A stretch of 55,100 nucleotides of DNA from an uncultured archaeon (lineage in GTDB: Archaea; Thermoplasmatota; Penumbrarchaeia; JASLWR01): NCBI GenBank assembly GCA_964430885.1, contig CAYSHM010000020.1:1-55100 (forward strand), written 5' to 3'. Within the stretch, counting starts at the first letter, position 1; every line of letters starts with the position of its first letter. This document shows, piece by piece, positions 1,597-55,100 of the stretch. The notes under the pieces were generated by a model. It was not told where the DNA came from. It did no database searches and saw nothing but the letters and a program-made list of their open reading frames with translations. The position numbers and the translations under genes were made by a program.

Positions 1597-1838
1597 AAGA
1601 CCAACTTCCAAAATATCAGTGATTTAAACTACCCTTTCAATTACTCAACTATTTTCAATCCTAAAGCATGAGGCCATATACATAATTTTATGTGATTATC
1701 ATATTGTTGAGAACGATTAATATTTTTACATTCATTCACCATAGTGGGCCGGATGAAGTGTAAATGACAAAAAATATTTATCCATCGATAACTGTGACTT
1801 TAATAGCTAGGCCATACATAAATCTAATGGGGGATGCA

Positions 1839-4800
1839 ATGAAGAAGTCTTATGAGAATCTGATCTTCGATCCACTTCTGGTACCTACAACTGTGGTTAT
1901 TCTGCTATTGCTCAATATACTGCCGGGTATTGGTGGTGTGAATTACTCCATTCAGGAGCATTTCGAAAGCGGGATAGAGTATAAAACCATCATATTCAAC
2001 ACTTCTGGATATGACAACAATGTTGAAATGAAAGTGGGTGGAAATCATTCCCTGAAGCACTTGAATGTTCAGATTACAGGGGCTCCATTCATTAGGACCA
2101 AGCCTATCAATGTGTATGACCTGGAAGATCATGAAGGAGAGTTGGATTCGAATCTGAGAATAATCAATGATGGGTCCAATAAAAGACTGGCACTGAAACC
2201 TGGTAGACTGCATTACCAGTATGATGATATGTCTGCAGGAACAGATGTTAACATTACCAGGGATGATGATCTTACACTTGAGAAAACAGACAGTCTGTTC
2301 AAAACTCCCAACACAAGGGTGGATGACTCCCCGATAGGTAAATCATCCGGGTGGCCTGCTCTAAAGGTGGATAAGGGAGGTGATATTCATGTGACTTATC
2401 ATGATGCCCGTGATGATCCGGCAAATCTGCGGTTCAAGGTATATTACACACGGTCTTCAGACGATGGGTTAACATTCCAGCCGGGAGTCAGGGTCGATTC
2501 CACACAGGTTGATGCCTTTGCTTCCTTCCCGGATATTGACATTCATGAAGACCTGGAGGGTAATGAAAGGATCTATCTTACATGGTACGACAACCGAACA
2601 GGTAATCATACAGTATACTGTGGTTTTTCCGATGACAGAGGCGCCACCTTCTCTGAAACAAGGGTCTGGCAGAATCATACGATAGGTGAATTGGATAATC
2701 CATCCATCGCTGCAGCTCCAAACGGATCGGTTCATATTACATGGACCGCATCGCCTCCCGGGGAAGGATGGCATACCTATCATGCTATGTCTATAGACAG
2801 TGCCAACTCATTCCGGCCGGCAGTCAGGGTGGATAATTCCACAAATGCGGAACAGAGGTGGAGCAACATAGCTGTTGACAACAGTAATCGAACTTATATA
2901 ACCTGGGCGGATTCCCGAGGGCCTAGAATGGAGATATATTGTGCACGTTCCGATGACGGTGTTTCTTTCAATAGTGCGGCAAAGGTCAATGATGCCTCGT
3001 TCTATCCCCTTTTCAGACCGGCAGTAGCAATAGATACCAGTAATAGGGTTCATGTTACATGGATGGATACAAGGGAGGGCGGGAATTTCAGAACGGGATA
3101 TGCAATGTCCGACAATTTTGGGGCGTCCTTCCATGATAACCGCAAGGTTGCGGACCTGAACGCAGGCTACCAGGGTACTCCTTCCATTGTCACGGATCAT
3201 GATGACAGGGTCCATATTGTTTTCGAGGATGGCCGAAACGGAAATCTAGATATATATTACACAAACAGCAGCAACTACGTACAGTTCACAGACAACATCA
3301 GGGTGGATGATACTGGCAACCTGGCAATATCTCAGGGCTACGCAGATGTTTCACTAGGCCCTGACGGCCGGCTCCATACCGTATGGATGGACGAGAGGAA
3401 AAGTGTTTTTGGTATTTATTACTCCAATACTCAATACTACAAGAACCGCGGGGAATATTCAAGCCCGACCTTGGATCCTGGGCGGGACCTAGCTGACAAT
3501 ATTACAGCTTATCTGAATTACAGTTCATATATCCCGGATGGGACCGCAATCAATGTCAGCTGGGCTTTATCCCATGACAGTCTTCATTGGAGTTATTACT
3601 ATAATGTATCCGATAATTTCTCCTTTGTACCTGGCATTGATCCGGGGTATTCTGTAAGATATATCCGAATATTTCTTGATATGGATGGCAATTCCATGAC
3701 CACGCCTATATTCCGTGGTATAACCCTCGAGGGGATGACCTATCCTGATGAGGGTATATATTTATCGAAATCATTGCATAACTCACCGTACTCATTGAAC
3801 AACATCACCTTGAATTATGTTAATATGTGCCATAAATCCGCACGACCGTTTTTCTCAGTGTATGACGGCGAGTATCCTCAGGAAATCACCTCCAATGCAA
3901 AATATGAGTTTCAGAATAACGAGAATGACTTTTACTGGGAACTTCATTTGGGATCATCAGGGAATGTTACTCCTGAGATATCGGGTATCGCTTTTATCAT
4001 CAATATGTCTTCTTTCCCCCGCAATGTGACCATTGATCTCTATGATGACGGCGACATGGATTGGTTCCATGAAGGGCAGCTGAAAGGACCATTCATAGCA
4101 TCCTTTTCCTTGGATGATGTCATAGGTATGGAAGGAATCAGATTCAACATATCCACCGATACACCCGGAACAATCAATTTGATCGATCCGCTTCTTCGTT
4201 ATAATTCCCCTCCATTCATTATCTCGAATTATCCATTATCAAAAAACCTGAAGGGTTCCGATAAGGAAAGCTTACATTTCTCCATCAATGCAACAGATGC
4301 GGAAGACCCCTTTCCTTCTGTAAATTGGTATGTCGACGATGTATGGAGGGCCAGTGGTGATAATTTCATCTATGACATGATGAAAGAGGATTTGGGAATT
4401 CATAAGGTAATGTCAGTTGTGGGCGACGGTGAATTTCAGGTGAACCGAACCTGGGATGTGGAAGTACTGCATGAGAATCGCCCTCCTTTCATATATAACA
4501 GAGACCCTGATGAAGATGATTTCCTCAGGACCATAAAAGGTCATATAAGTCCGGAGTATACTTTCACGGCAGAGGCGCTCGATCCTGATGGAGACATCCT
4601 GACATACAGGTGGTTTTTGAATGATTCACTTATAGATATTAATACATCTTCCGTAGTTATCTTTTTCACCGAATTCCAAAGAGGAAATCACACGTTGGTA
4701 TGCAATGTTACCGATGGATTTTTGTGGGATTCTGCGGCCTGGAATCTCTCTATCCAGTTTGCACCTGACCTTTCAGATCCCAATGAAACGGCTTCGGATG

Positions 4801-5306
4801 ATGATGGCCCAAATAATAATAATAATAATAATAATAATACCGATCCTGTTAAGTCCAAGGATAGCAGGGAGGAGGAATCTTCCATATCCAGCCCGGTAAT
4901 TTGGATCGTGATAGTATTGATAATCCTTCTATTGACGTTAGGTCTGTTCTTAGGTCTATTTATGATGTTGAGGAGGAAAAAAACTGAGGGTAATGAGAAG
5001 ATGGATGGTTGTCCCGAAGACTCAGATTCTGTTGATGAAGATCATTGCAAAAGGGACCCCTTAAAAACAGGTCCCGCTAGTGCTCAAGACCGCGAAATTC
5101 CTGAAGAACAACAGGATATCTCCAACAGCCAAATGATCGAGAATAATATTGATCTCCCTACCCATCAGAATATTGAAATTGAAGAAAATAATGTTGTGGA
5201 GATAAGAGATATGAATTTGGATCAAAGCGGAGTGGGAACGGCTTCAGGTCTTGTTGATAAAAAACTGCCATCTCACCAGATTTCCCCACCCCCTCCGGCG
5301 TTATGA
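1839..5306 (+). CDS. Large surface protein with Asp-box (BNR) beta-propeller, Ig-like domains and C-terminal membrane anchor
   Basis: Signal-like N-terminus. About 7 repeats of H/Y-(V/I)-x-W-x-D-x-R with SxDxGxTF Asp-boxes. NxPP..DPDGD Ig-like units, then TM VIWIVIVLIILLLTLGLFLGLFMML followed by RRKK. ATG 1839 follows GGGGGA (ORF track start 1764). Confidence 0.8.
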   Translation: MKKSYENLIFDPLLVPTTVVILLLLNILPGIGGVNYSIQEHFESGIEYKTIIFNTSGYDNNVEMKVGGNHSLKHLNVQITGAPFIRTKPINVYDLEDHEGELDSNLRIINDGSNKRLALKPGRLHYQYDDMSAGTDVNITRDDDLTLEKTDSLFKTPNTRVDDSPIGKSSGWPALKVDKGGDIHVTYHDARDDPANLRFKVYYTRSSDDGLTFQPGVRVDSTQVDAFASFPDIDIHEDLEGNERIYLTWYDNRTGNHTVYCGFSDDRGATFSETRVWQNHTIGELDNPSIAAAPNGSVHITWTASPPGEGWHTYHAMSIDSANSFRPAVRVDNSTNAEQRWSNIAVDNSNRTYITWADSRGPRMEIYCARSDDGVSFNSAAKVNDASFYPLFRPAVAIDTSNRVHVTWMDTREGGNFRTGYAMSDNFGASFHDNRKVADLNAGYQGTPSIVTDHDDRVHIVFEDGRNGNLDIYYTNSSNYVQFTDNIRVDDTGNLAISQGYADVSLGPDGRLHTVWMDERKSVFGIYYSNTQYYKNRGEYSSPTLDPGRDLADNITAYLNYSSYIPDGTAINVSWALSHDSLHWSYYYNVSDNFSFVPGIDPGYSVRYIRIFLDMDGNSMTTPIFRGITLEGMTYPDEGIYLSKSLHNSPYSLNNITLNYVNMCHKSARPFFSVYDGEYPQEITSNAKYEFQNNENDFYWELHLGSSGNVTPEISGIAFIINMSSFPRNVTIDLYDDGDMDWFHEGQLKGPFIASFSLDDVIGMEGIRFNISTDTPGTINLIDPLLRYNSPPFIISNYPLSKNLKGSDKESLHFSINATDAEDPFPSVNWYVDDVWRASGDNFIYDMMKEDLGIHKVMSVVGDGEFQVNRTWDVEVLHENRPPFIYNRDPDEDDFLRTIKGHISPEYTFTAEALDPDGDILTYRWFLNDSLIDINTSSVVIFFTEFQRGNHTLVCNVTDGFLWDSAAWNLSIQFAPDLSDPNETASDDDGPNNNNNNNNNTDPVKSKDSREEESSISSPVIWIVIVLIILLLTLGLFLGLFMMLRRKKTEGNEKMDGCPEDSDSVDEDHCKRDPLKTGPASAQDREIPEEQQDISNSQMIENNIDLPTHQNIEIEENNVVEIRDMNLDQSGVGTASGLVDKKLPSHQISPPPPAL
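4812..4838 (+). repeat. (AAT)9 microsatellite encoding poly-Asn
   Basis: Nine perfect AAT units in frame in the linker just before the TM helix. Confidence 0.95.
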
Positions 5307-5335
5307 CAAATCAAAACCGAAATGGAAATGATAAT

Positions 5336-6238
5336 TCAATTCAATATCACAAAAGAAACATGATATTCATATTTTAATTTTTCAAATGGTTCATTATCCA
5401 AAAGGGCCCCTAAGGTCCATGAACGGGCATGAAAGCGGTATGCCTTCAAGGAATTAAATCGTTTTAAGGCTTTTCCATGAAGAACAAAATCATATTCCGC
5501 ATCGGGTAATGTGCCTTCAGCGGTATCTGGAGATAGTTTATTGGTGCTGAAAGTCTCGAATATCTCGATATCGTGAGTGCTGACCGAAAAACCGATACCG
5601 AGAGCTTTGGAAACCGCTTCTTTGAGAGTATATATTTTGGTCATATATTTATGAAAAGGGTTCATGCTGCTGCCGATTTTCTTTCTTAGGATTTCGTCCA
5701 TGTTTTCCTCATTATGCCGACCAATGTTCTGTTCAGCTATTTTCAATTCCCTTTTGGTAAAGGCAGTTCGATAGAAGGACGATTCTCTTCTTTCCACCTT
5801 CTCTAGATCCGTACCCAGACCCAGCAGTTTACCTGACAGGCTCACTGCAGCAAGGACAAGTTCATTTGAGTGGGATATTGATATCCTCAAGTTTTGGAGC
5901 ATTTTGCCATTGTGATGCACTGCCGGAGCTTTACTCTCAATAGGAAGTATGGATAATTCGGGAGGTTCTGCTAAAATAAAGCCTTTCTTATGAATATTGA
6001 CCAAGAGTTTTTTTCCAGCCAACCTTCCGGAAAGCCATTCCCTCTGCCGTTTTTCACCGCCCAATCCATCAAATATCTTCCTTTCATCGTGGGTGAGAAC
6101 CGATTGGTATTCACCGCTAACATCAGGAATTATTTTATCCAGGCAACAAAATATATCATGTCTATCAATGACAATTATTCTCCCAATAAATCCTCCATTC
6201 CCTTTTTTGTGATCAGAAATCTTGTGTTCACAATGCAA
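5336..6238 (-). CDS. 4'-phosphopantetheinyl transferase, Sfp-type
   Basis: LTHDE..KRQREWLSGR, ISISHS, GLGTDLE (5801-5815), FTKRE and YTLKEAVSKALGIG match the Sfp-family motifs G[IV]D[IL]E and W/FxxKEAxxKA. Confidence 0.88.
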   Translation of the reverse strand: MHCEHKISDHKKGNGGFIGRIIVIDRHDIFCCLDKIIPDVSGEYQSVLTHDERKIFDGLGGEKRQREWLSGRLAGKKLLVNIHKKGFILAEPPELSILPIESKAPAVHHNGKMLQNLRISISHSNELVLAAVSLSGKLLGLGTDLEKVERRESSFYRTAFTKRELKIAEQNIGRHNEENMDEILRKKIGSSMNPFHKYMTKIYTLKEAVSKALGIGFSVSTHDIEIFETFSTNKLSPDTAEGTLPDAEYDFVLHGKALKRFNSLKAYRFHARSWTLGALLDNEPFEKLKYEYHVSFVILN

Positions 6239-6242
6239 ATCA

Positions 6243-7937
6243 TCATTTTTTCTTCTTATTGTAAACCACCGCTATCACTATAATGAATAATACAACAATC
6301 AAACCTAAGATCCACCAGTTCAAACCGCTCTTCGGCTCCTTGTTCGATGCGCCAGGGTTCAATACCATGAAATCCCTGGTTATAATGGCGGTCTCGCCGC
6401 CCTTGCTGTTGCTCCCTTTCACGCTGACAGTATGGTTTGTCCCTTGGATTTTAGAAAGGTCTATTGGAAAATCCCATTTCACCATATCCCCTTCATCATT
6501 GGTAAGTGCTTCTACCCAAGCACCATCATCCAGTCTAGCAAATACGCTTGGTTTTTCATTCAGGTCAACAGCTGAACCGGTCACAATAAAGGTTTGCTGG
6601 TTATTCTCAATCCTTTCCCCGGGTTTCAGATCGATGGTTATGGTAGGAGGGGTATTCTGGGCATTTGATGTCAGGTCGGTGAAATATCCGATATAATCAT
6701 CCCAGAATCCTTCCTTGGCAAAGTCCAGGGTGTCGAATTCTTCGGAATATTGTACATCGATGTTATTGGGTAGATATATGGACAATCCGTATGCCCTGGG
6801 ATGGTAGGAGTCCGTTCTCACATCAATTATGGCATTCTGAGTCTTTTCCTTTACAATCCTCAGGGCGGAATTCAGCTCCTGGGAAAGAGGGACAAGTTTG
6901 TCCAGCTGTTCCATAAGGTCCATCACATCGAATAATGTATATGATGATACCTTGAAGGGGCCAGGAACATCTGGATAAGCATAGCATTCAGAAATGCTTC
7001 TGGCGCCTTTTACCTGAATGTTATGCTGGGTATTGTCCGACGCCAATATCATAGCTAATCTGTTCACCGATTGGGCCAGATCATTTATCTTTGATAGGTC
7101 GAAGAGCGCCAAACTCACCACAGGTGAATCGGATGGGTCGTCGTTATTATCAGTGTAGGAATCGATATAATCATTTACAATTTCAGAACCCAGGTCTTGG
7201 GCTGACATTGATGGATTCTTGTCAAGAGCTGAAAAAATCAATTCATACGGCCACCCGTCTCCGGGTTCGACAAATCCCGAAGCAACAGAATAATCAGCAA
7301 AGTCTTTGATCTGGTACATTACTCCAAGCTGGGCCATTAGACATGCATCGAATCCGATTATATCTAGATTGTGTCCGATCTCTTTTCTGATAGTTGACAG
7401 GGCATATGTCAAATCTTCCATACTGAGAAAATCATGCGGTTCGCTACCGTCGTCCCAGCACACCCCCCAGAATGCACCTCCATGATTCCACAGATCCAGG
7501 AAATACCTTCTTGCAGGGTAGTTCTCGTAAGCCCAGAGAACAAAATCTATAAGGTTGTCAGGGTCGCCCATGTTCATCTCACCCATGTCCTCGAGAACCG
7601 GTGAGGTTATTGTGCTGGGTTCGCTGTCTTTCTCGATCCGGTATCTTTTGGTTCCTTTCCAATCATCATTGGATTCGTCGTAGCCCTCTGCGCGGTCGAA
7701 CTGGACTATATAATTGAGCTTGTCGTTTGATCCCACGGTTTCCATCTCATTTACGTCTTCCACTCCAGCTCCTTCAAGGTTATTGTCCGCAGCCAGATAT
7801 ACCATAAATGTCCATTCGGCCAAACCCTCATCGAGGGATGGCTCCTGGTCATCTCCGGTTGTAATGACGGAGATAGTGGTGGTTCCTAGGAGGAACATTA
7901 TCAATGTTATTATCATCATTATTTTCTTGGTGATCAT
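6243..7937 (-). CDS. Clostripain-family (peptidase C11) cysteine protease, membrane-anchored
   Basis: WTFMVYLAADNNLE, EMNMGDP, LWNHGGA (catalytic His), IIGFDACLMA (catalytic Cys), EPGDGWPY, GLSIYLP. Signal peptide, Ig-like domain, C-terminal TM plus KKKK. Confidence 0.93.
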   Translation of the reverse strand: MITKKIMMIITLIMFLLGTTTISVITTGDDQEPSLDEGLAEWTFMVYLAADNNLEGAGVEDVNEMETVGSNDKLNYIVQFDRAEGYDESNDDWKGTKRYRIEKDSEPSTITSPVLEDMGEMNMGDPDNLIDFVLWAYENYPARRYFLDLWNHGGAFWGVCWDDGSEPHDFLSMEDLTYALSTIRKEIGHNLDIIGFDACLMAQLGVMYQIKDFADYSVASGFVEPGDGWPYELIFSALDKNPSMSAQDLGSEIVNDYIDSYTDNNDDPSDSPVVSLALFDLSKINDLAQSVNRLAMILASDNTQHNIQVKGARSISECYAYPDVPGPFKVSSYTLFDVMDLMEQLDKLVPLSQELNSALRIVKEKTQNAIIDVRTDSYHPRAYGLSIYLPNNIDVQYSEEFDTLDFAKEGFWDDYIGYFTDLTSNAQNTPPTITIDLKPGERIENNQQTFIVTGSAVDLNEKPSVFARLDDGAWVEALTNDEGDMVKWDFPIDLSKIQGTNHTVSVKGSNSKGGETAIITRDFMVLNPGASNKEPKSGLNWWILGLIVVLFIIVIAVVYNKKKK

Positions 7938-7963
7938 GAAATCACATCCATTTTTGATTTAAT

Positions 7964-10900
7964 TTATTCGACCGGTAAGGTGGTCGCTATTTTAATCTTA
8001 TCATCGCTGCTCTCATCAATCACGGGTTTTGTGGTGACTGCCTTAGTGATAACTGGCCGAGTGGTTACCTTTTTGGTTGTTGTGGTCTTTCCAGGTGATA
8101 AAGGCCTAGTTGTTACCCTTTTGGTAATGACAGGTCTCATAGATGGAGCGGATTTAGGTTTTGTAGTGGTAGTTGCTGGAGCAGTTGAAACAGGCCTGGT
8201 AGTGGCTACTTTTGGGGACTCTGTTATAACCTGCGGTTCAGGAGTTGTTTCCTGGAATATATCCTTATTTGTAGTGATGGGTGCAATCGGCTTGGTCATC
8301 GGTTTAGGAATCTCCGGCTCTGATGGCATTTTTCCCCCATCAATAGGCTCTTCAAGGTTCATATCATTTTCCGGTAAAGGTTCAGGAGGCAGGAGTGCAG
8401 TTCCTTTTCCATCGCCTGTTGTATCTAGAGCTTCTACTGTTTTGGTCATCTGCGGTTCAGGCTGATGGACCTCCTCTGAAAGAACAGTATGCTGTTGAGG
8501 CATATCAGGTTGTGTTTCGGGGAAAAAGGGACTCCCCTGTTCACTCCCAATTTGCGGGATAGGATCTGCAGATTGGTCAGTAAGAGATTTCTGCGCTGGT
8601 TCAATTGAGAGAGTTTCATCTTTGGATAAGCCTCCCCATTCATCTAGATGGATCTTCAGCTCGGTAGCGTCATCAACCTCCAGGTCAGGTCTATATCTGC
8701 CTTCCTCGTCGTATCCTTCCCTATATCTGCTCTTCTTAACTATAAGAGTGAAGATGATCACAACAATGCTCAGAAGGACAATGATAAGAATAATGCCGAA
8801 GATCAGAGCACCGTCTGATATCTCGGAACCTTTATCATCCCGACCGCGGTTAGAATATGGGGACACAATATTGACCTTGAGGGAAAATACATTATTTGTT
8901 TCATCAGTTTCGGGAATTATTCCCTCTTCGTTGATGCGTACATAGAATGTCCGTTCTCCATAGATATTCAGTTCCCTGGTGAATGAGATAATTTTTGAAT
9001 TTTGGGTATCGATACTGTTCAGTTCCGCAGTATATACTAGAGTTTTACCAAGGAAGAACGATACTGTGAGGTTCTCTCCAGCTAATCCTTCGAATTCTTC
9101 AGATCCTGTATTTTTTATAGCAGCCATGAACCGTGTCTTCTCGTTATAGTTCAATGTGATTTCTTCGCCTTGACTGAAGGTCTCATTCCTTATGGTCAAG
9201 CTATCAACAATGAAATCATAATCCACCACCGGGACGCTTATGTTCAGGAGTTTGGTCTTGGAAGGGTCTCCGTTTGAAGTAGTTTTAAGGAGAAGCGCGT
9301 ATTCACCCAAAGCAGCATTGTTCTCTGCATTGATGGTCATAACAACCTGTTTGGATTCTTCATATGATAATAAAAGGTTCTTGGTCCTTATCACAGCCGA
9401 TATGGGCCCGTCAGAAGCCTTTTCCAAGTTAAGATATATGATGTCCTGGGTATTTCCCATGTTCTCAATGGTCAGGTAATAGTCCTTGGATATTCCCTCA
9501 TTCTTTCTGGCGATCTCGACAACCTTTGTCTCGGTCAATATGCTGTGTTCATATCTGGGATTGATCTGCAATAGAATTTCTGTTTGATCGCTTATAGGCA
9601 AAGGATTGATGGAATAGCCAACCATGATTTTGAAAGAATATGGGTCCAGATCCTTTGTTGTGTTATTGGAATCCGCCCCCCAGTGCATTGGAACGGTTAG
9701 AAAAGCTTTGATCATGGCGGATTCATTTGCATCAAGCCAAAGATCCTGAAGGGGATTATTCAGATACTGGAAGGAAATATGGGGTGAACCGCTGCTAATA
9801 TTGAAAGCCTCATAGGTATTACCTGTATTCTTGATAGCTATGTCATAGATCACCATATCTCCGTTGTCTGCCTGTTGCAGATTTTTAACTGAAGTGATGT
9901 TTACACCAAACTCGGGAAGTATCTGGAAATAGAAGGTGAAGGTATCTTTGGCCTCAAGAGTTTTGCCTGCAAGCACAGTAACAACTACCGGGAACACGTC
10001 ATTGGGTGTACCCCGTGGAACCCAAACTTTCAGGAATATCTGACCCCAGTATAATCGGGGCAGCCCGCCATGGAGTTTACTATCATCGACATATGTCTTC
10101 CAGCCATAGGGATGGCTGACATTGAATTCAATGGTGTCGTCATCACCGTTGCCAGTGTTGGTCACATTGAAGGAGATCCAAACATCTCTTTCAGTATGTA
10201 TGTTGTACTCCAGGACCCGCGCTTTGATATCTATATCGAATTTCTGCAGGACGGCTGTTGCAATGTGAGTGGAGGATTGTATGTTGATATTTTCCATGGA
10301 CGATGCGGTGACGGTCAATATGTCCGTTGATCCGTAGAGAGCATCTTCTGGAACAGTTATCTTTACCTGAACCGTCACATTGTCGTCATCTGTGAATGGT
10401 ACCAGCTCCGGTGTGACTGAGTAAGCCAGCAACCGGGTTTCCCAATGATTGGATGATTTCAAGCTGATTGAGAACGAATCTACAGCATTACCGATATTCC
10501 TGATAGTGAAATTGTATATGACGAACTCACCTGGTCTCGCCGCCGAGCTTTCTGGAGCAATCACTTCTACCTTCGGGTCCGGCAGGACCTCGATGGGAAG
10601 TTCAAGTGATGCATTTGTGACTCCGTCTCCCTTGGAGGCTGCCAATATCTTTATCATCTTTATTCCTGCCATTGCCGAGGCTGGAACTGCAACGATCATG
10701 CTTACCTTACGGGAACTTTCCTTGTCAAGGGAATTGAGCACGTCATGGTCGAAGAGAGGGATTGTCCATCCCTCTTCTTCGGAAGGATATTCAGTGACAT
10801 TCAGCTGAATGTCATCCTTCTTCTCTCCGTCGTTGTAGACTGTAAAAGTAATAGAAATGGCATTTCCTGGTGGACTTTTCATTATGGTCCCGTTATGGCC

Positions 10901-12355
10901 TAGACGAATATCGAAAGGAGACGGATAAATGTCCTTGTCAATATATCCGACATTGTTGGGTGCATATTCGTCTTCAGCCAAAAAGGCTGTGAAGGTTAAT
11001 CTGTAATCGCCTACTGCAGGAGGCATCCAATGAAATGTAACGTTTTCGATCTCTGATTCGATGACGCCCTCTATCTCTCCAGACTCAATAGTTTGCACCT
11101 CTTTTATCATGGAATATCCGCGTCCATCCTCCATGGTTACGGTCATGTTTGCATCTATATTGCCCCAGTTCGCCATTTGAACTGTGACAGGAATGGTCAT
11201 CAGGGGATACCACTGTCCTTTTATTCTGTTCACATCCCAAACTCCGATATCATAGAAAGTTTCACCTCTTATTGTGAACTCTTTTGTGTTACCATCACTG
11301 ACCTCATCATTTCCCATAGTGGTCTCAAGGGTTATGGTATAATCCCTATCCTCAATATCGGGGACTGTCCAATGGAAGGATACAATTGAAGATCCCATAA
11401 CGCTCATTTGGCGGGTGGTTGCGGATGTATCAGTATAGTCGTAGTTATTGCTGGTAATGGTGAGGCTGACCGGGACATTGTTCTGGTTGTTGAATCCGTA
11501 GTTAATAATGCTTGCATTTATTATTATATCTGAATTTGGACGTACCCGGGTATTTGGGACTGGGGAAATAAGGGTTTCCACACCGACATCATTACCCATG
11601 ATGCCAAAGATAATTGACTGCATTGATTGGGGGATTGGATTGCTGTAATATGGCATGTTGAAATGCACCCCGTCACCGTCATTCAGACCGACAGTCAAAC
11701 CGGAGGCGCCGCCCAAGGTCTTGTAATTGAAAAGTATGTTTCCGCTGTCTTTGTAAAGGATCATCTGAAAATCGGAAAGGGCCCCGTTCCAATCGAAGGG
11801 GGTCTTGTACCATGTGGCAACAAATCTGTCAGGATTCGAAAGTGTTTTGTAATAAATACCAGAGTTGGGTGTTGCACTCCAGTAGTATACATACTCCCAT
11901 GCAGGTGATATGACCTTTCTGTAATCGCTATTAGCTGTAGGGAATTGAAGGTTGAAATCATCGCATACTGTAGATTCAAAACTGGCATATCCATGTGTGA
12001 ACAGGTTTATGGATGAATATGTGCTATCGTAGAAATCGAAATCAAAACCGATATTTGCCGATCCCCAACCATCATAACTGAAAGCAATCCTAGTTGCTCC
12101 CTGAAGAGGTTCCTCCCACCGATAGGGTATTGTAGTATCCTGCTGGTAATTGAAACTGGCCCTTGTATCATCGCCTTTGATTTCCGAAGGTGAACCAACT
12201 ATTTCAGAAGAGTTGGGATACATAAAATTTTCCACATCTCCTTTTTGGGTTTTTGCGGTTGTCGGTAAGGTGATCTGAAGACCTGCTGTGACCATGATGG
12301 CCAATAACAAAAGGGACATGATTTTCTTTTTATTGCAACTATTATTCATAGCCAT
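7964..12355 (-). CDS. Very large multi-domain surface protein (nidogen-like N-domain, CARDB/NEW3-type Ig repeats, TM, long Pro/Thr-rich tail)
   Basis: Signal peptide. IGFDFDFYDSTY..FVATW..FQMILY (NIDO-like), many 'I.N.GN..D' Ig repeats, IPETDETNN (CARDB), TM followed by KKSRYR. ATG 12355 lies behind AGGTGT (track start GTG 12364). Confidence 0.75.
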   Translation of the reverse strand: MAMNNSCNKKKIMSLLLLAIMVTAGLQITLPTTAKTQKGDVENFMYPNSSEIVGSPSEIKGDDTRASFNYQQDTTIPYRWEEPLQGATRIAFSYDGWGSANIGFDFDFYDSTYSSINLFTHGYASFESTVCDDFNLQFPTANSDYRKVISPAWEYVYYWSATPNSGIYYKTLSNPDRFVATWYKTPFDWNGALSDFQMILYKDSGNILFNYKTLGGASGLTVGLNDGDGVHFNMPYYSNPIPQSMQSIIFGIMGNDVGVETLISPVPNTRVRPNSDIIINASIINYGFNNQNNVPVSLTITSNNYDYTDTSATTRQMSVMGSSIVSFHWTVPDIEDRDYTITLETTMGNDEVSDGNTKEFTIRGETFYDIGVWDVNRIKGQWYPLMTIPVTVQMANWGNIDANMTVTMEDGRGYSMIKEVQTIESGEIEGVIESEIENVTFHWMPPAVGDYRLTFTAFLAEDEYAPNNVGYIDKDIYPSPFDIRLGHNGTIMKSPPGNAISITFTVYNDGEKKDDIQLNVTEYPSEEEGWTIPLFDHDVLNSLDKESSRKVSMIVAVPASAMAGIKMIKILAASKGDGVTNASLELPIEVLPDPKVEVIAPESSAARPGEFVIYNFTIRNIGNAVDSFSISLKSSNHWETRLLAYSVTPELVPFTDDDNVTVQVKITVPEDALYGSTDILTVTASSMENINIQSSTHIATAVLQKFDIDIKARVLEYNIHTERDVWISFNVTNTGNGDDDTIEFNVSHPYGWKTYVDDSKLHGGLPRLYWGQIFLKVWVPRGTPNDVFPVVVTVLAGKTLEAKDTFTFYFQILPEFGVNITSVKNLQQADNGDMVIYDIAIKNTGNTYEAFNISSGSPHISFQYLNNPLQDLWLDANESAMIKAFLTVPMHWGADSNNTTKDLDPYSFKIMVGYSINPLPISDQTEILLQINPRYEHSILTETKVVEIARKNEGISKDYYLTIENMGNTQDIIYLNLEKASDGPISAVIRTKNLLLSYEESKQVVMTINAENNAALGEYALLLKTTSNGDPSKTKLLNISVPVVDYDFIVDSLTIRNETFSQGEEITLNYNEKTRFMAAIKNTGSEEFEGLAGENLTVSFFLGKTLVYTAELNSIDTQNSKIISFTRELNIYGERTFYVRINEEGIIPETDETNNVFSLKVNIVSPYSNRGRDDKGSEISDGALIFGIILIIVLLSIVVIIFTLIVKKSRYREGYDEEGRYRPDLEVDDATELKIHLDEWGGLSKDETLSIEPAQKSLTDQSADPIPQIGSEQGSPFFPETQPDMPQQHTVLSEEVHQPEPQMTKTVEALDTTGDGKGTALLPPEPLPENDMNLEEPIDGGKMPSEPEIPKPMTKPIAPITTNKDIFQETTPEPQVITESPKVATTRPVSTAPATTTTKPKSAPSMRPVITKRVTTRPLSPGKTTTTKKVTTRPVITKAVTTKPVIDESSDDKIKIATTLPVE

Positions 12356-12412
12356 TCTATACACCTGAAGTCCTATGTGACCGGAGATTGCTTTCTTCTA
12401 TTAGATGCAATC

Positions 12413-19260: not shown

Positions 19261-22200
19261 TCAATTAATAATCGGATCGATGAGCTTCTTCATCTCTGCC
19301 AGCATTTTTCTATCTTCAGCAGAGGTTGTAGTATCATCGCCCTTTTCCAGCAGCCAATTTATCTTTTGTATTGTAATTGCATATGCGGTATCCTTGGCAA
19401 ATATCCCCTTGTCAACAAGGTTCTTGTAGAGGGTATGTATCTTGTAGGTATTCTGTACAAATACATCATAGTCAGCTTCATCCACTGGCTCATATAGCTT
19501 CAGGGCGCCTGATACCAGCATGGTGTAGTCCTGCAGTGCCTGTACGATGGGCTTTGTGGCCTTTTTCAGCGACAGTTCTGTGGCTCTATCTCCCTCTTTA
19601 AGTGCTCCTTTCAAAGCACTTTTTGCCCAGTCGTAGGCAGCCTGTGCATCTTCCTTCAGCGGTGCGGCTTCCTGTGAGCTCAGAACACCCTGCTCAACTA
19701 GAAGACCTAAGGCAGTACCCATCTTTGCCATCTTATCCTTCTGCATCCAGTCACCAAGGGTTTTTACGGATATTCCGCTGTCTTCAATTCCCTTGACTCC
19801 GATCTTTGTCTTCTCGTATACATCAGGTGTAACACTGGCAGATGTGATACCCGCCACAGCGCACAATGCAGCGATGAAGGGACTGTTGGATACTCCCATT
19901 CCGCAGAATCCCACTTCCTTGCCCTGCCTAATAGCTTCAAAGATGATGGCCAGCATCTGCTGGACCACTGACGGGTCCTCTTCATCATACACTTCCTGAA
20001 GCTTTGCCAGATCCCTATCGGTCATCAATACACCCTGGGTCAGGTCGTTGCTTCCGATGGAGAATCCGTCGATATCTCTCAAGAAAGACCTTGGATTCTG
20101 ACCTACTGACGGGATCTCCGCCATGACAAACAGTTTCAGACCCTTATCTCCTCTCTCGATACCGTTTGCCTGGAGGCTGGCGGTTGTTTCAATGAGCTCC
20201 TGTTCGGTTCTAACGAAGGGAAGCATGATATGAAGGTTGATGGCGTTATACTGGTCCCGGGCCTTCCTGAAAGCCTCGGCTTCCCAGACATCTATCCCTC
20301 TGGAAACCCCTCTGAAACCCAGCATGGGATTGTCCTCATCCGGTTCAAAGAGAATTCCTCCCAGGAGACCTTGATATTCGTTGGATTTATAATCCGTAGT
20401 CCTGTATATGATATCCTTGCCGTCAAAAGCTTTGGCAAACAAAGCGATCTGCTGGGACAGCATTTCCGTGTAGAACTCATAACCGCTGGAATAACCTGCA
20501 ACCAGAAGTCTTGTTTCGATCTCGGTCTTTGTTCTCTCCAGTACCTTAACCAGTTTATCGCCGTTATTGGCTCCGCCGGTTGCATACATGGACATCAAGA
20601 GACGCTCACCTTCTGTGACGTCTACCTTTTTCTTCTCTGAAAGGGTCTTCATAACACTCTTGATCTCATCGGTTCTGATAAGTTCAAGAAGCTGATTGAA
20701 TATACCTGCATCATATGCCTTGAGGGCCTGATAATGAACGCCAATGGCGCCGAGAACGAACTCTGCCCGTAGCAATCCTACCTTGAAATCGGGTATATTC
20801 TTCAGCTGGCTCAGCTTTTTAGCGGCATTTACATCTGCCAATATCAGGCCGACTGAAGTATTTGTGGGATACTCATTTCTGATCTTGTTGGTATCGATAT
20901 CCTTGCCCTTTTCCTCCAGGGTTACCCTGCCTTTAATCAGATGTCCGTTGGAGCCATCTACTGTAATTATCTGTCCATCCAGGGATTTCAATAATTCGAT
21001 ATCTCCTACACCAATAACCGCAGGGATGTTCAGTTCCCTTGAGGTGATGGCAGCGTGGGAGGTTCTTCCACCGACATTGGCCACTATAGCTCCTGCAATG
21101 TTCATCAAGGGGAGGAAATCAGGGTCGGTTCTTTCCGCTACTAATATGTCTCCCTTCTTGAAATTGATAAATGCTTCCTTGTTGATCTCACGTATGAATT
21201 TCACATCACCTGTAGCGGCCCCGGCCGACGCACCGTCTGCAGTTTTCATGATGAGTCCTTCTTTAACTGCATGTTTCATAGCAGCGTCCGTTACCTCTTT
21301 CTTTCTCATGGGAATGATGCCCGGGTGTAATTCCATCACCTCATTCCAGTTGGTCTCAGGTCTTGCCTGGACCATGTATATTCCTGAATGATCGATAGCA
21401 AATTCTATATCCATATATTTTCCATATCTGTTGTGAATGATAACTGCCATTCTAAGGATCTCATCCTCTTCCTCCTTGGAAAGTACCCAGGAGGTTCTCT
21501 CTTTCAGGGAGGTCTCGGTTTCGTGGGAACCTATTCCATCCTCGTTCCTGATTATTTTGATTTCCTTTGCACCAAGGGTCCTAACTCTCAGTTTTCCGTC
21601 AAATCCTCTCAGGATATTGTCAGGAGTTGTAAGACCCCCAACCACCGATTCCCCTATCCCGTAATTTACGTCGATCTGTACGACACCATCCATACCTGTA
21701 TTCGTTTCTACAGTGAAAACGGTACCTGCCTTCTCGGAATGGACCATTCTATGGATTACCACACTGACAGCTATATTGTCGAAATCAAAAGACCTGAGGG
21801 CCCTCTCTCTTGTGGCCACCTCGTCAAATTCCTTTCCTGCTTTTTCAGCCTTAAACCTGGCCTTCTCAATTGCCTTGTTTATCTGGCTGATTCTGTACTC
21901 AAGGGATCTAACGTTGAATCCGGATGCAAAATCTCTCTGAACATGTTCAATAACATTTTCAGCACCATATATGTAAACATAGGTATCCTGTGCACCGGCA
22001 AAGGCCGCGTCATCACTGTCCTCTCCAACAGCAGAACTTCTTACCGCGACCTCAACATCTTCGATATTGGACCGATCACAGATATCCTTGTATCCGGCTG
22101 CAATATCTTTCTTGATCTTCTCGTCCATTTCAACTGAGATTATTGCGATCTGAGCAGCTATTGATAGACTTATCTTTGCATCATACAGCACAGCCTCATC

Positions 22201-22617
22201 ATTTCCTTTTTCGGCCAATATTTTCTTGGTCTCAGCGATCTTTTTGTTGATGAACTGCCTAATGGTTATGGCATTCATTTCCGGAACACCTTTGGAATGT
22301 ACCTCTCGGCATTCCCTGCCCTTCTTGAAAACAAATTTGGGCTGTGATAGGTCCTGCCCTCCATATTCCGCAATTGCGTCCTTCACAAATTGATCAAGGT
22401 AAACCGAATCAACGATCGCATTATCGAGATGTTTATTATAAGCGGCGGCCGATACTGCACAGAATGCAGCGGTATTTACGCCTTCCAGGTTCTCCAGAAT
22501 GGCCAAATTATAATTCTTGCCACCAACCAGCTCAAGTCCTTTTCTTCCCAGCTGTTCTATTTCCGAGCCGGAAAGGACATTTTTTTGTATTATCTCATTT
22601 TCTTCCATGGTTTTCAC
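19261..22617 (-). CDS. ppsA: Phosphoenolpyruvate synthase (pyruvate, water dikinase), unusually long
   Basis: VGGK, AVRSSAVGED..FAGAQDT, QARPET, GGRTSHAAI (phospho-His), VGLLRAEF, EDNPMLGFRG, DGFSIGSNDLTQ, GFCG. Confidence 0.95.
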   Translation of the reverse strand: MKTMEENEIIQKNVLSGSEIEQLGRKGLELVGGKNYNLAILENLEGVNTAAFCAVSAAAYNKHLDNAIVDSVYLDQFVKDAIAEYGGQDLSQPKFVFKKGRECREVHSKGVPEMNAITIRQFINKKIAETKKILAEKGNDEAVLYDAKISLSIAAQIAIISVEMDEKIKKDIAAGYKDICDRSNIEDVEVAVRSSAVGEDSDDAAFAGAQDTYVYIYGAENVIEHVQRDFASGFNVRSLEYRISQINKAIEKARFKAEKAGKEFDEVATRERALRSFDFDNIAVSVVIHRMVHSEKAGTVFTVETNTGMDGVVQIDVNYGIGESVVGGLTTPDNILRGFDGKLRVRTLGAKEIKIIRNEDGIGSHETETSLKERTSWVLSKEEEDEILRMAVIIHNRYGKYMDIEFAIDHSGIYMVQARPETNWNEVMELHPGIIPMRKKEVTDAAMKHAVKEGLIMKTADGASAGAATGDVKFIREINKEAFINFKKGDILVAERTDPDFLPLMNIAGAIVANVGGRTSHAAITSRELNIPAVIGVGDIELLKSLDGQIITVDGSNGHLIKGRVTLEEKGKDIDTNKIRNEYPTNTSVGLILADVNAAKKLSQLKNIPDFKVGLLRAEFVLGAIGVHYQALKAYDAGIFNQLLELIRTDEIKSVMKTLSEKKKVDVTEGERLLMSMYATGGANNGDKLVKVLERTKTEIETRLLVAGYSSGYEFYTEMLSQQIALFAKAFDGKDIIYRTTDYKSNEYQGLLGGILFEPDEDNPMLGFRGVSRGIDVWEAEAFRKARDQYNAINLHIMLPFVRTEQELIETTASLQANGIERGDKGLKLFVMAEIPSVGQNPRSFLRDIDGFSIGSNDLTQGVLMTDRDLAKLQEVYDEEDPSVVQQMLAIIFEAIRQGKEVGFCGMGVSNSPFIAALCAVAGITSASVTPDVYEKTKIGVKGIEDSGISVKTLGDWMQKDKMAKMGTALGLLVEQGVLSSQEAAPLKEDAQAAYDWAKSALKGALKEGDRATELSLKKATKPIVQALQDYTMLVSGALKLYEPVDEADYDVFVQNTYKIHTLYKNLVDKGIFAKDTAYAITIQKINWLLEKGDDTTTSAEDRKMLAEMKKLIDPIIN

Positions 22618-27915: not shown

Positions 27916-28545
27916 CTATTCTGATGATATTTTTCTGCCTGTTAACTCCGCAATTCTTTTCATTATTCGGAGTGTAACTTTCTTGTTGATTTCTTTATTA
28001 TCCTCTGACCCGAAATCTTTGTTGAATGACATTGCTTTTCCGAATTTGATAACGGCCTTTTTCGGTCGTGGCAATTTTTTGTTCTCCGGCATGATCTTAT
28101 CACTGTTGATTATACCCGCAGGTATCACTGGCACTCTGGCCCCTAATGCCAATCTTGCAACACCAGTATGTCCTTTACCCAATTCAGGACCCATAAAAAA
28201 GGTCCCTTCGGGAAATATCACGACACATTTCCCTTCCTTCAGGGCTTCAAGGGCGTTCTTCAAGGCCTTGGAATCACCTTTTCCCCTCTCTATCTTTATG
28301 TTTCCAGTGGATGTGAAGAACCATTTTTTGATATGGGTATTGAATAATTCTGCCTTGGCGAGGTAATAGAGGCTTCTCCTTGTAGAATAGGAAAGCAGAA
28401 GCGGGTCCCAGTTGCTGGTATGATTGGGTGCAATAATAACGCCGCCCTTTTTTGGGATGTTTTCTTTTCCCTTTATCTTCGGCCTATTCCAGAATGAAAT
28501 AAATAGAACATCAAGGGCCCGGATGATTCGATAAAGGATGGTCAT
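27916..28545 (-). CDS. plsC: Lysophospholipid / 1-acyl-glycerol-phosphate acyltransferase family protein (PlsC-like)
   Basis: All four AGPAT blocks are present: NHTSNWD (28405-28425), LAKAELF..IERG, IFPEGT, VPVIP. Confidence 0.88.
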   Translation of the reverse strand: MTILYRIIRALDVLFISFWNRPKIKGKENIPKKGGVIIAPNHTSNWDPLLLSYSTRRSLYYLAKAELFNTHIKKWFFTSTGNIKIERGKGDSKALKNALEALKEGKCVVIFPEGTFFMGPELGKGHTGVARLALGARVPVIPAGIINSDKIMPENKKLPRPKKAVIKFGKAMSFNKDFGSEDNKEINKKVTLRIMKRIAELTGRKISSE

Positions 28546-39948: not shown

Positions 39949-40191
39949 GAATTACTCCCCCAAGATAAGCAATTTTCTTCTATGATAAAGGTTTATTAAA
40001 TTTATATAATTTACTCTATAATTTAAATATATCTTCAATTAATTAAACTTTTGTCTTTCGGTAATATTGGATTTTCAGTACCTTGATATTATCATATCCT
40101 TGGAATCGAATCGGATTGCTTCGATTATCAGGTACAAGTAATATTAAGGCGGAATAATATTTATTTATAATGGGTGCAATTATCAATTTCT

Positions 40192-40947
40192 ATGAATATT
40201 ACTTTGAATCATCCTAGATATTTGTCATTAATGATGAGAGAGCTGCTGGCCAAGGCTGTAAATGAAGGCCTGGTCACCCCGACTGGCCTTACTGCTCACG
40301 GAAGAGGCGAGGCCTTTGACTATCTATTGGGGGAGAGGACTATCGCCCCTGCTAAAGAACAGGCTAGAGTAGCCGCAGCTCTTCTGTTGACCTCTGAAAA
40401 ACCGGTCATTTCAACAAATGGAAATTCTACTGTCCTTGCACCAAAGGAGATCATCGAGTTATCTGAAATATCCGGTGCCAGGATGGAAGTGAATCTTTTT
40501 CATCCTTCACTGGAAAGGGTTGGTAAACTGGTCTCTCTTCTTGAAGATAATGGTGCCGAGGGAGTTCTGGGCCTTAATTTAGACGCGGTCATTCCTGGTA
40601 TGGACCATAATAGAGCTAATTGTGAATCAAGAGGTATTTATGCTGCTGATACAGTACTGGTTCTTCTGGAGGATGGTGATCGTACTGAAGCTTTGAAGAG
40701 GATGGGTAAGACCCTTATTGCTGTAGATCTAAATCCCCTTTCCAGAACCGCAAAGGAAAGCCATATCCCAATAATAGATAATGTGATAAGAGCATTACCC
40801 AATATTACTGGTTTCGTGAGGGAAATGAAGAACTACCCTCGATCGGAACTGATGAAAATAGTTGATGAGTTCAATCCCAAATCGAGTTTGGAACTGACGG
40901 TAAATGAGATATCAATATGTTTGAGGAACAATTTTAAATCGGACTAG
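40192..40947 (+). CDS. Phosphopantothenate synthetase (4-phosphopantoate--beta-alanine ligase), archaeal CoA pathway
   Basis: HPRY.SL..RE, GLTAHGRGEAFDYLLGE, ISTNGN, EVNLF, LEDGDR, DLNPLSRTA. ATG 40192 is preferred (track start GTG 40174). Confidence 0.92.
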   Translation: MNITLNHPRYLSLMMRELLAKAVNEGLVTPTGLTAHGRGEAFDYLLGERTIAPAKEQARVAAALLLTSEKPVISTNGNSTVLAPKEIIELSEISGARMEVNLFHPSLERVGKLVSLLEDNGAEGVLGLNLDAVIPGMDHNRANCESRGIYAADTVLVLLEDGDRTEALKRMGKTLIAVDLNPLSRTAKESHIPIIDNVIRALPNITGFVREMKNYPRSELMKIVDEFNPKSSLELTVNEISICLRNNFKSD

Positions 40948-49055: not shown

Positions 49056-49059
49056 CTGG

Positions 49060-54600: not shown

Positions 54601-54713
54601 ATGCCGCGGCAGATTTTCATCATATCGCCGAGATATTTCAATAATTTTATGCTGTCCCGCATAGCAATTGATACTTCACCAGACCTTATTTCTGTTTCAA
54701 TTTCTTCAGCCAT
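51693..54713 (-). CDS. Large acidic all-helical repeat protein
   Basis: Recurring A/G-x3-L-x2-G-[DN]-[YI]-x2-A turns, a central disordered acidic segment and no TM. ATG 54713 follows GGAG (track start TTG 54743). Confidence 0.7.
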   Translation of the reverse strand: MAEEIETEIRSGEVSIAMRDSIKLLKYLGDMMKICRGMEIVDEDMEEAYNDLKKHRPLFFENWKAYYERIRKIYDIMEVLIEKENNKFLEKVEPALGNAKELGFDTDKLKVLLLSAQEELDRGNIPLAQQYISHLSSIYDSILVHYIDFTRELMDVKEEYQKTLTTSLGDHSQIENLINLGEETALRGDYKSALEIINNCKSLIIDMRSSQKARDKIKQLRLTLLDLKDRSPPYLEEENIFQELETALARARSNYHRDKYQSAIDTIDLVQGELLKIEDYIRSEYCNWKIERSLERLNNISGIKILNPSDVEGFKSELAIISSVVVEGKYQESIFMVEEIYNRILETIKTESERFSSETKPHLEELMGVLKALNIAGDEFSEIFDDFVNSEVNDDHIGASKLSQTLMTQGHSIFKEYVNKVLKNMKENLGSEIDEKTIIQDEELAQLLGKHHYNKLLKKLENIAEILEERELQMEELDSRFEIIKEYIRTMKLQEEEIIYAAQIEKLSSLLEKNELFEAREIVREMEKTIETFVSDLLLNLKYKQQEIKDMGMDPGNIFTKLQEAKEMLANGDILMSFDISSSIKKDVDLFKEEIISDSKTDTDINGNQQKNGEEKEYTIKNQVQINETNETFLEDDSHKDYEMEIDSALGQSPKFDDLDEAHNSLEKENKNEKYIDSQPHSSVTKEKLIDAREEEKIIEAEIEVKASKKRTPRIVDDSKNEKLQSKSKDDSDQEFIDSLVWDNKGKNEEIIPINESLVRMDDLPTGKLVILSESVRTRFPNMHYKIIPDPGLDNDIGIEGVLEKTKEILELLRDKGWAVDELYNEIIQAESLITRSNYIKANEKIQYCIDNAINIIDREDLQIRTKEDEIRVGLSDLEALVKEKIDRGIILDPIKELIQKGRDFLEMTDIRNAERALRQSKELFEEIMDQYEELRVQLSDIMNRMKGLNTANIDIEDTMPLLEDIEDLKERGDYSKAIKKCERCKAKLIRIEVLAPLYKTEKKSK

Positions 54714-55100
54714 ATCAAAACTCCAGCTCTGTTCCATGTACAAATTTGGGTATCTTAACCTGACATTATCTTTCTAAACTTATTTGAGCTATGCCTGTGA
54801 TTGGCATATTCAAAAAGGTTCAGTTCGATGATTGGAAAGATATTATATAAAATATATTATCTCTTGGATGGTAAGGATTGTTAATATCAGGCTTTTTGAG
54901 AGAATATTTAATAGAAAAACCTATAATTTTGTATAGGGACATATTCAATTATTTAACTGCAGGGCAATATTTATTTTTAAAAGCACCCTTGAAGCTTAAA
55001 ATATATTAATATCTGATTTGTTTATATATGTCTGAAATATTTCTTTATGGACTGCACCCCGTTTAGTGGACAATATAAATAGCTTCATCAACAATGGAGG

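Follow-up and report, generated by a model that had tools for sequence, protein, structure and literature searches.

The gene at positions 5336..6238 (minus strand) of a 55,100-nucleotide stretch of DNA from an uncultured archaeon (GenBank assembly GCA_964430885.1, contig CAYSHM010000020.1, positions 1 to 55,100; hereafter the window) is predicted to encode a phosphopantetheinyl transferase (PPTase). With a probability of roughly 0.85, this protein serves as dedicated holo-synthase (a pfaE homolog) for a Type R-like secondary lipid synthase and would act on the four acyl carrier protein (ACP) domains of a large synthase encoded elsewhere in the same genome. The host genome is a metagenome-assembled genome (MAG) of 3.13 Mb in 44 contigs, 91.6% complete with 1.4% contamination. 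The window contig is referred to as C20 and the contig carrying the synthase as C5.

Identification of the PPTase

The gene is an uninterrupted open reading frame (ORF) of 300 residues plus stop, with a TTG start. The Pfam family PF01648 (ACPS superfamily) matched residues 140-233 at 43.7 bits (cutoff 25). The 4PPT_N family matched residues 62-133 at 20 bits, under its cutoff of 27; the orthologue in G001, a genome of the same family, reached 27.5. All NCBIfam matches, to PPTase and AcpS models, were sub-cutoff. An AlphaFold2 (AF2) model was built on a 13-sequence alignment, with a mean predicted local distance difference test score (pLDDT) of 82.5 and a predicted template modelling score (pTM) of 0.84. 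Following a fold search with Foldseek, the top PDB entries were Sfp (4mrt), human AASDHPPT, PptT and PcpS, with E values from 7e-10 (4mrt) to 2e-7 over 265-306 aligned columns at 11-16% identity. Because these were its best fold matches, the protein was assigned to the two-half group II (Sfp-type) enzymes. Sequence and model thus confirmed the prediction of a two-domain Sfp-type PPTase. A single-sequence search of the PDB gave weak AcpS matches (E 0.018-0.067) and one of 5.8 billion proteins gave three non-self matches; a profile search of 1.84 billion representatives returned 79,808 relatives at E <= 1e-3, about 14 of them at E <= 1e-50.

Residue conservation was scored across 13 aligned sequences, both free-standing and fused, the window protein included. 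Invariant in 13/13 were G71, R72, K76, P105, S120, H123, S124, G142, D144, E146, E149, F160, E164, K206, E207, K211 and G216. The Asp-Glu-Glu metal triad (D144, E146, E207) was thus intact in 13/13, and D144, E207 and K211 aligned with the corresponding residues of the solved AcpS 3qmn. We take D144, E146 and E207 to be the equivalents of the triad residues in the Sfp numbering. Group II PPTases carry an Asp-Glu-Glu or Asp-Xxx-Glu Mg triad, the former in most prokaryotic enzymes of this group according to the accessible text of PMC4103896. The features of the protein are listed below in window coordinates; P1a and P1b' are motifs of the Type R literature discussed in the last section.

5834..6190, minus strand: N-terminal PPTase-fold half, residues ~17-135, supported by the 4PPT_N match (62-133), by alignment to B. 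subtilis-type AcpS 1f7l/1f7t (profile against PDB) and by AF2 secondary structure; it contains the invariant G71-R72...K76 and, at residues 102-105, SKAP in the P1a position
5867..5881, minus strand: S120-I-S-H123-S124 motif, which together with I119 fits P1b' hShxH; S120, H123 and S124 invariant in 13/13
5339..5833, minus strand: C-terminal catalytic PPTase-fold half, residues 136-300, with the PF01648 match at 140-233; residues 137-226 align to Vibrio AcpS 3qmn
5792..5815, minus strand: G142-T-D144-L-E146-K-V-E149, triad residues 1-2 and the invariant E149; aligns with GLGTDI of AcpS
5606..5623, minus strand: K206-E207-A-V-S-K211, third triad residue E207 and conserved lysine; aligns with AAKEAASKALG of AcpS 3qmn
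5663..5716, minus strand: lineage-specific insertion of ~18 residues (~175-192) between the catalytic motifs, absent in 12/12 other aligned relatives

The probable partner synthase

An earlier note on this DNA, made from the letters of the window, had reported complete Sfp motifs, predicted an assembly line elsewhere in the genome and proposed a genome search for carrier domains. The first claim held, given the PF01648 match above cutoff, the Sfp-type fold of the AF2 model and the intact triad D144/E146/E207. The search was run and returned four matches to PF00550 (PP-binding), all in one open frame of 3047 aa (C5:108864-118007), a ketosynthase (KS) and second ketosynthase (KS2) in that same frame, seven AMP-binding genes and no Condensation domain in the host genome. 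The predicted assembly line is accordingly present, as a PfaA-like type I synthase holding all four PP-binding matches.

The layout of this synthase is ACP-KS-AT-KS2-ACPx3-KR-DH, where AT is acyltransferase, KR ketoreductase and DH dehydratase, with the following residue limits.

C5:108864-118007: ACP 15-82; KS 151-562; AT 775-1003; KS2 ~1462-1706 (with Cys); ACPx3 1843-2129; KR 2512-2650; DH from 2733

The synthase scored 1070.3 bits against the NCBIfam model TIGR02813 (PfaA; cutoff 1010.1), and the motifs DAACASS (KS1), NAACSST (KS2), GHSLG (AT) and HxxxGxxxxP (DH) were present. Neither PF03060 (PfaD, NMO-type enoyl reductase) nor PF07977 (PfaC, FabA-type DH pair) had a match at E <= 1e-3 in the host genome, which is 91.6% complete. 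Without a Condensation domain, a PfaD-type reductase or a FabA-type dehydratase, the synthase is therefore predicted to be neither a nonribosomal peptide synthetase (NRPS) nor a canonical pfaABCD polyunsaturated fatty acid (PUFA) synthase. The NRPS reading was rejected on the missing Condensation domain and on the AMP-binding genes, which are ordinary in size and in no case adjoin the synthase. For a thioesterase (PF00975) a sub-cutoff match was obtained. The genes around the synthase (lactate permease, CMD, glutamine synthetase, queuosine salvage) form no cluster with it.

The source of the enoyl reductase varies among relatives. In family f30 the gene immediately preceding that of the synthase is FabI-like (L079, G072:C1:1882500-1898500); a homologue of this FabI-like gene was not found in the host genome at E <= 1e-5, local tblastn giving noise at E 4.7 or worse. 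In family f7 the N-terminus of the synthase (L024, G020:C33) has a weak NMO/PfaD-like region (16.7 bits, below cutoff). The window itself encodes, at 27916-28545 (minus strand), a PlsC-type acyltransferase (PF01553, 107.5 bits; NCBIfam AGP_acyltrn, 91.5 bits, under the cutoff of 102.95) that also resembles an acyl-[ACP]--phospholipid O-acyltransferase domain. Such an enzyme might take the acyl chain made by the synthase for ester lipids, which would be unusual in an archaeon.

Linkage of PPTase and synthase in related genomes

The two families were scored in 41 related genomes, all of them MAGs; as these genomes are kin and not independent, the table is descriptive. PF00550 and PF01648 occurred together in 24 genomes, PF00550 alone in three (68-79% complete), PF01648 alone in two and neither in 12. 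In the sister family f7, synthase and PPTase form one polypeptide with the PPTase at its C-terminal end, in ORFs of 3695 and 3722 aa with the order KS-AT-KS2-ACPx5-6-KR-DH-PPTase, and such fusions also occur in several other families. In the single-contig genome G072 (family f30), three genes stand side by side on the same strand and encode a FabI-like enoyl reductase (281 aa), the synthase (2941 aa) and the PPTase (253 aa). Among bacteria, the PPTase most closely related to that of the window is from an Acidimicrobiales MAG, where it lies downstream of a homologous synthase with Thr-type ACPs (see next section) and an acetyl-CoA-carboxylase-like (ACC) gene.

Other PPTase genes were encountered in the survey. 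A free-standing homologue with 32% identity lies in a 297-aa frame in family f5 (G007:C117:9667-10176). At L027 (G001:C77:6000-17000), in the family of the host genome, an AcpS-type PPTase is accompanied by a FabA-like dehydratase, a KS, two short-chain dehydrogenases/reductases, a nitroreductase, a discrete Ser-type ACP and a radical SAM protein; by gene content this is a second, type II fatty acid synthase-like cluster. A counterpart of L027 was not found in the host genome, where the PF00550 and PF01648 matches are limited to the synthase and the window PPTase. In a single-contig 1.6-Mb genome of family f11 (G277:C1:1005897-1021185), a 245-aa PPTase frame adjoins several giant frames (1117-4148 aa) whose PP-binding domains belong to another motif type; one of these frames contains an in-frame TAG. 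This locus is probably an NRPS or polyketide synthase (PKS) cluster.

Threonine at the ACP acceptor site

The four ACPs of the C5 synthase (4/4) read DLGIDTVKQVELF, with Thr in place of the Ser that accepts phosphopantetheine; the core is LGIDTV in 4/4, versus LGIDS(I/L), with Ser, in canonical PUFA synthases. In phmmer alignments with solved ACPs the Thr occupied the same column as the Ser in DLGVDSI (5y08), DLGADSL (2ehs), DLKADSL (2lol) and DLGLDSL (7b0n). A census of the synthases of 22 genomes (families f1 and f7) gave Thr in 90 of 96 ACP motifs, each of the six Ser motifs being the first ACP found in a tandem array. Within genus g17 this first ACP has Ser in G025 and Thr in G018 and G019. 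Thr was also found in representative genomes of f15, f30, f33 and f34, and in the majority of bacterial homologues with two KS domains. Codon usage at the acceptor site was ACG 50, ACC 32, ACT 16 and ACA 4 for Thr, and TCG 5 and AGC 1 for Ser. As all four Thr codons are in use, Thr has been kept through synonymous turnover, a pattern that we read as purifying selection for Thr and not drift.

The best 120 homologues of the ACP region, a list that the query biases to Thr types, comprised 91 Thr-only, 26 Ser-only and three mixed proteins. Among the 26 Ser-only proteins, 23 had one KS-cysteine-like motif, two had two and one had none, and the named ones were PfaA of Shewanella, Colwellia and Pseudoalteromonas; motif counts rest on our own regular expressions, and that of the KS motif covers proteins without Thr. 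Among the best 150 PPTase-profile matches, 18 exceeded 400 aa, and nine of these fused proteins had ACP motifs, with Thr in 22/22 and Ser in none. In G001 and G003 a separate AcpS-type gene stands beside discrete Ser-type ACPs. Those of G001 read DLEVDSL and DLGADSI, whereas the ACPs of the G001 synthase have Thr; this contrast suggests two PPTase-carrier pairings in one genome.

We lean towards the view that this clade of PPTases, free-standing, adjacent or fused to two-KS Type R-like synthases in Thermoplasmatota and many bacteria, phosphopantetheinylates Thr instead of Ser. The argument is one of elimination, because the host genome has one PPTase and four carriers that all have Thr, and both genes are intact and conserved; it also draws on the exchange of Ser and Thr at the first tandem ACP within one genus. 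In the PPTase, no residues were identified that would explain acceptance of Thr. A literature search, thin on subscription journals and supplements, returned no description of Thr at the ACP acceptor site.

Proposed mechanism and alternative explanations

The PPTase would bind CoA and Mg2+ through D144, E146 and E207 and would move 4'-phosphopantetheine to a hydroxyl at the start of helix II in each of the four ACPs, presumably that of the Thr in the conserved motif. With its ACPs converted from apo to holo form, the synthase would iteratively condense malonyl units (AT, KS1, KS2), with ketoreduction by KR and dehydration by DH, and would yield an acyl or polyketide chain. The analysis shows the fold and motifs of the PPTase, the existence of the partner and its co-occurrence, adjacency and fusion in relatives; from these we infer catalytic activity, the ACPs as substrates and attack by the Thr hydroxyl.

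Several observations weigh against this reading. PPTase and synthase are on different contigs in the host genome, so that no carrier is visible in the window, and another carrier could lie in the ~8% of the genome that is unassembled. The neighbourhood of the PPTase gene is not conserved, with a C11 peptidase gene in the window and one for a zinc-ribbon protein in G001. The C5 ACPs are without the canonical acceptor Ser, and to our knowledge ACP mutants with Thr in place of Ser are not modified by E. coli AcpS. In G007 (85% complete) no PP-binding match was obtained at E <= 1e-3 despite the PPTase homologue; either its synthase is unassembled or the PPTase has another client. In the window PPTase the P1a position reads SKAP, although x(G/D)xP was found in 11/13 aligned sequences, the other exception being the G002 orthologue (SRAP). 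The insertion at ~175-192 is poorly modelled, with mean pLDDT of 61 and 55 in its 10-residue blocks. The start codon is uncertain, because residues 1-14 have pLDDT < 50, three free-standing orthologues of the same family align only from about residue 20, and there is no in-frame ATG, GTG or TTG between the TTG at 6238 and M113.

The PPTase might have as its acceptor an unrecognised protein outside the PP-binding family, the synthase being activated otherwise or not at all. The unlinked genes, the missing Ser and the G007 homologue would agree with this, and the earlier note had named a novel acceptor as its second option; the acceptor residue does appear to be new, Thr and not Ser, but the acceptor fold is that of an ordinary ACP. 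We consider a different acceptor very unlikely, as the PPTase forms fusions with the synthase in several families besides f7 and in f7 itself, adjoins it in f30 and in a bacterium and co-occurs with PP-binding domains in 24/41 genomes, and as the host genome has no second PF01648 gene that could serve the synthase. Since it is the only PPTase gene of the host genome, and Sfp-type enzymes are often promiscuous, it may also be asked whether the enzyme is a broad-specificity housekeeping PPTase with the synthase as one client among several. This is very improbable: in the assembled 3.13 Mb no other PP-binding domain was detected, and G001 and G003, which have discrete Ser-type ACPs, keep a separate AcpS-type gene, suggesting a division of labour.

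The acceptor Ser missing from 4/4 ACPs and the enoyl reductase not found in the host genome would also fit a PPTase, or a whole pair, that is a decaying and non-functional relic of horizontal transfer, with Thr marking the loss of function. A search of sequencing runs for window positions 5000-8000 also returned no RNA data set. There is very little room for such decay where both ORFs (9.1 kb and 0.9 kb) are intact, the KS1, KS2, AT and DH motifs are present, the catalytic residues of the PPTase are invariant, and Thr is retained in different families and also in bacteria, with all four codons in use. Contamination of the bin by a bacterial contig, be it that of the window or that of the synthase, is extremely improbable. 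Judging from the names of homologues, the synthase family is mostly bacterial, and a few other contigs are deviant (C18, C34, C44), but two proteins encoded in the window, a proteasome alpha subunit and a phosphopantothenate synthetase, are of archaeal type, C20 and C5 agree in composition with the remainder of the genome (r = 0.980 and 0.993), and orthologous PPTases and synthases occur in many independently assembled relatives, including records labelled Thermoplasmatota archaeon and single-contig genomes. A dedicated PPTase for the C5 synthase remains the preferred reading.

Host genome and archaeal origin

For the proteasome alpha subunit of the window, the best NCBIfam matches were archaeal models (207.7 bits, just below cutoff). 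The archaeal-type phosphopantothenate synthetase of the CoA pathway at 40174-40947 (plus strand) scored 323.8 bits against NF010324 (cutoff 227); this pathway is the source of the donor substrate of PPTases. Tetranucleotide frequencies correlated with those of the rest of the genome at r = 0.980 for C20 and 0.993 for C5. The synthase gene itself reached r = 0.919, where random pieces of 9.1 kb averaged 0.916, and the composition of both genes is native. The closest orthologue of the PPTase sits in the MAG of a Thermoplasmatota archaeon. Judged by these sequence characters, the window contig is archaeal (Thermoplasmatota) and native. Four other contigs, C18, C34, C44 and C16, are deviant in GC content (0.48-0.51 versus ~0.43) and correlation (r 0.70-0.90, versus at least 0.96 for most; C18 0.70, C34 0.79, C44 0.73) and may be mobile elements or mis-binned; C20 and C5 are unaffected.

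In the host genome (3.13 Mb) PF01648 had one match, the window PPTase. Among sampled Thermoplasmatota genomes at least 80% complete, PF01648 was present in 106/301, in many cases within frames of 3000-3800 aa, and in family f30 it was found in 43/47 genomes. In this lineage a PPTase is thus nothing unusual, a point on which the earlier note needs correction. Two outcomes under which that note would have given up its proposal did not materialise: archaeal NCBIfam matches and a tetranucleotide r = 0.98 speak against a bacterial or chimeric contig, and invariant catalytic residues and four ACPs against an inactive protein in a genome without carriers.

Other genes of the window

Next to the PPTase, at 6243-7937 (minus strand), lies a gene for a clostripain-family (C11) peptidase with a signal- or transmembrane (TM)-like N-terminus and, at the C-terminal end, a TM segment. 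The peptidase stop codon is 4 nt before the TTG of the PPTase gene, and the two may therefore be co-transcribed; the pairing is not kept at the orthologous locus of G001 (L028). Four very large proteins of 1016-1466 aa are probably cell-surface proteins, to judge from few or no Pfam matches (CARDB, PKD, disaggregatase repeat), linkers rich in Asn or in Thr/Pro, and TM anchors at the C-terminus. The remaining genes noted comprise two overlapping ORFs and a dikinase. The coordinates are as follows.

1764-5306, plus strand: very large protein, probably cell-surface
7964-12364, minus strand: very large protein, probably cell-surface
41001-45326, plus strand: very large protein, probably cell-surface
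51693-54743, minus strand: very large protein, probably cell-surface
47289-49094 and 49060-50835, both minus strand: tandem overlapping ORFs of ~600 aa, each with a C-terminal spermidine-synthase domain and a long, possibly membrane-embedded region; one has a sub-cutoff MFS_1 match (30.4 versus 33.4 bits)
19261-22617, minus strand: pyruvate phosphate dikinase, 1118 aa; its PPDK_N and PEP-binding domains are each ~80 residues longer than the Pfam profiles, which suggests insertions

Significance and comparison with known systems

The paradox of a PPTase in an archaeon is resolved in that iterative lipid or polyketide megasynthases of bacterial type are present in many Thermoplasmatota, each with a predicted activator of its own that is encoded separately, adjacently or in fusion. 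Such pairs bear on the debate over fatty-acyl lipids in archaea. Should Thr indeed be the acceptor, these synthases would form a large natural exception to the invariant-serine rule of carrier proteins, and O-phosphopantetheinyl-threonine on tandem ACPs would be a carrier modification not found described in the literature searched. This would matter for annotation pipelines, for PPTase engineering and for the choice of PPTase in heterologous expression, where Sfp may fail, and the divergence of the PPTase clade would reflect adaptation to a bulkier secondary hydroxyl. The host genome provides a minimal test bed, with one PPTase, one synthase and four ACPs that all have Thr.

AcpS (group I) acts as a homotrimer. 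Each half of the window PPTase aligns to AcpS chains, with the catalytic D, E and K in correspondence; unlike AcpS, of ~120 aa, the window protein is a 300-aa two-domain monomer type. With Sfp (4mrt, 1qr0), AASDHPPT (2cg5), PptT and PcpS it shares the two-half pseudodimer fold, the Asp-Glu-Glu triad class and a PF01648 match above cutoff, and it differs from Sfp and other group II PPTases in identity (11-16%) and in a presumed substrate that carries Thr. Methanogen group II PPTases presumably accompany NRPS genes, whereas the window PPTase occurs with a PfaA-like synthase for lipids or polyketides. A 2014 list of archaeal group II PPTases has those of Methanobrevibacter ruminantium, Methanocella, Methanomethylovorans and a Thaumarchaeota single amplified genome (PMC4103896 Table 3); the window protein resembles these listed entries in being archaeal, of group II and with an Asp-Glu-Glu triad. 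In the accessible text of PMC10304266, type I PKS (T1PKS) is the second-largest class of biosynthetic gene clusters in marine archaeal genomes, and polyketide synthase transcripts are reported from Thermoplasmatota MAGs in that of 10.1101/2022.12.20.521206.

The enediyne PKS (PKSE) CalE8 has KS, AT, KR, DH and PPTase domains that interact with its ACP, whose HMSSI motif is modified on Ser971, as described in the accessible text of PMC3107222. The fused f7 form has the same domain set (KS, AT, ACP, KR, DH, PPTase) as CalE8/SgcE, and by analogy the fused synthase could therefore activate itself. CalE8 has one ACP, whereas the archaeal forms carry 3-6 ACPs in tandem and an additional KS, and the window PPTase is a separate gene. 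Canonical PUFA synthases (pfaABCDE, Types A/B) are resembled by the C5 synthase in that it passes the TIGR02813 PfaA cutoff; they differ in that PfaC and PfaD companions were not found in the host genome and the Ser motif of the ACPs is replaced by a Thr motif.

The closest known arrangement is Type R of Shulse & Allen 2011 (PLoS One 6:e20146, PMC3098273), a pfaA homolog with a PPTase, catalogued in bacteria according to the main text of that paper. The layout given there is a pfaA homolog KS-MAT-CLF/KS2-ACP(3-6)-KR (MAT, malonyl acyltransferase; CLF, chain length factor) with the PPTase directly downstream, an ACC gene lying between the two in Koribacter. P1b' hShxH is assigned in that text to the PPTases of Types M-T, including Type R, and P1a reads x(G/D)xP. 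The words 'archaea', 'threonine' and 'serine' have no occurrence in the main text, so that neither an archaeal host nor an acceptor Thr is mentioned in it. An archaeal Type R assignment, or the fused, adjacent and unlinked arrangements described here, were not found in print in the literature search, with its thin coverage of subscription journals and supplements. Differences from Type R are the archaeal host, the N-terminal ACP and DH domain added in the C5 synthase, the SKAP at P1a of the window PPTase in place of x(G/D)xP, and its position, which is not directly downstream of the pfaA homolog as it is in G072, nor fused as in f7. In common with Type R, there is one pfaA homolog as partner, comprising KS, AT, second KS/'CLF', tandem ACPs and KR; the PPTase is downstream in f30; ACC lies between the two in the Acidimicrobiales MAG as in Koribacter; and the window PPTase reads I119-S-I-S-H123, in agreement with hShxH. 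With hShxH present and the Type R arrangement found in relatives, the description that best fits the window gene is therefore that of a putative pfaE homolog of an unlinked Type R-like system.

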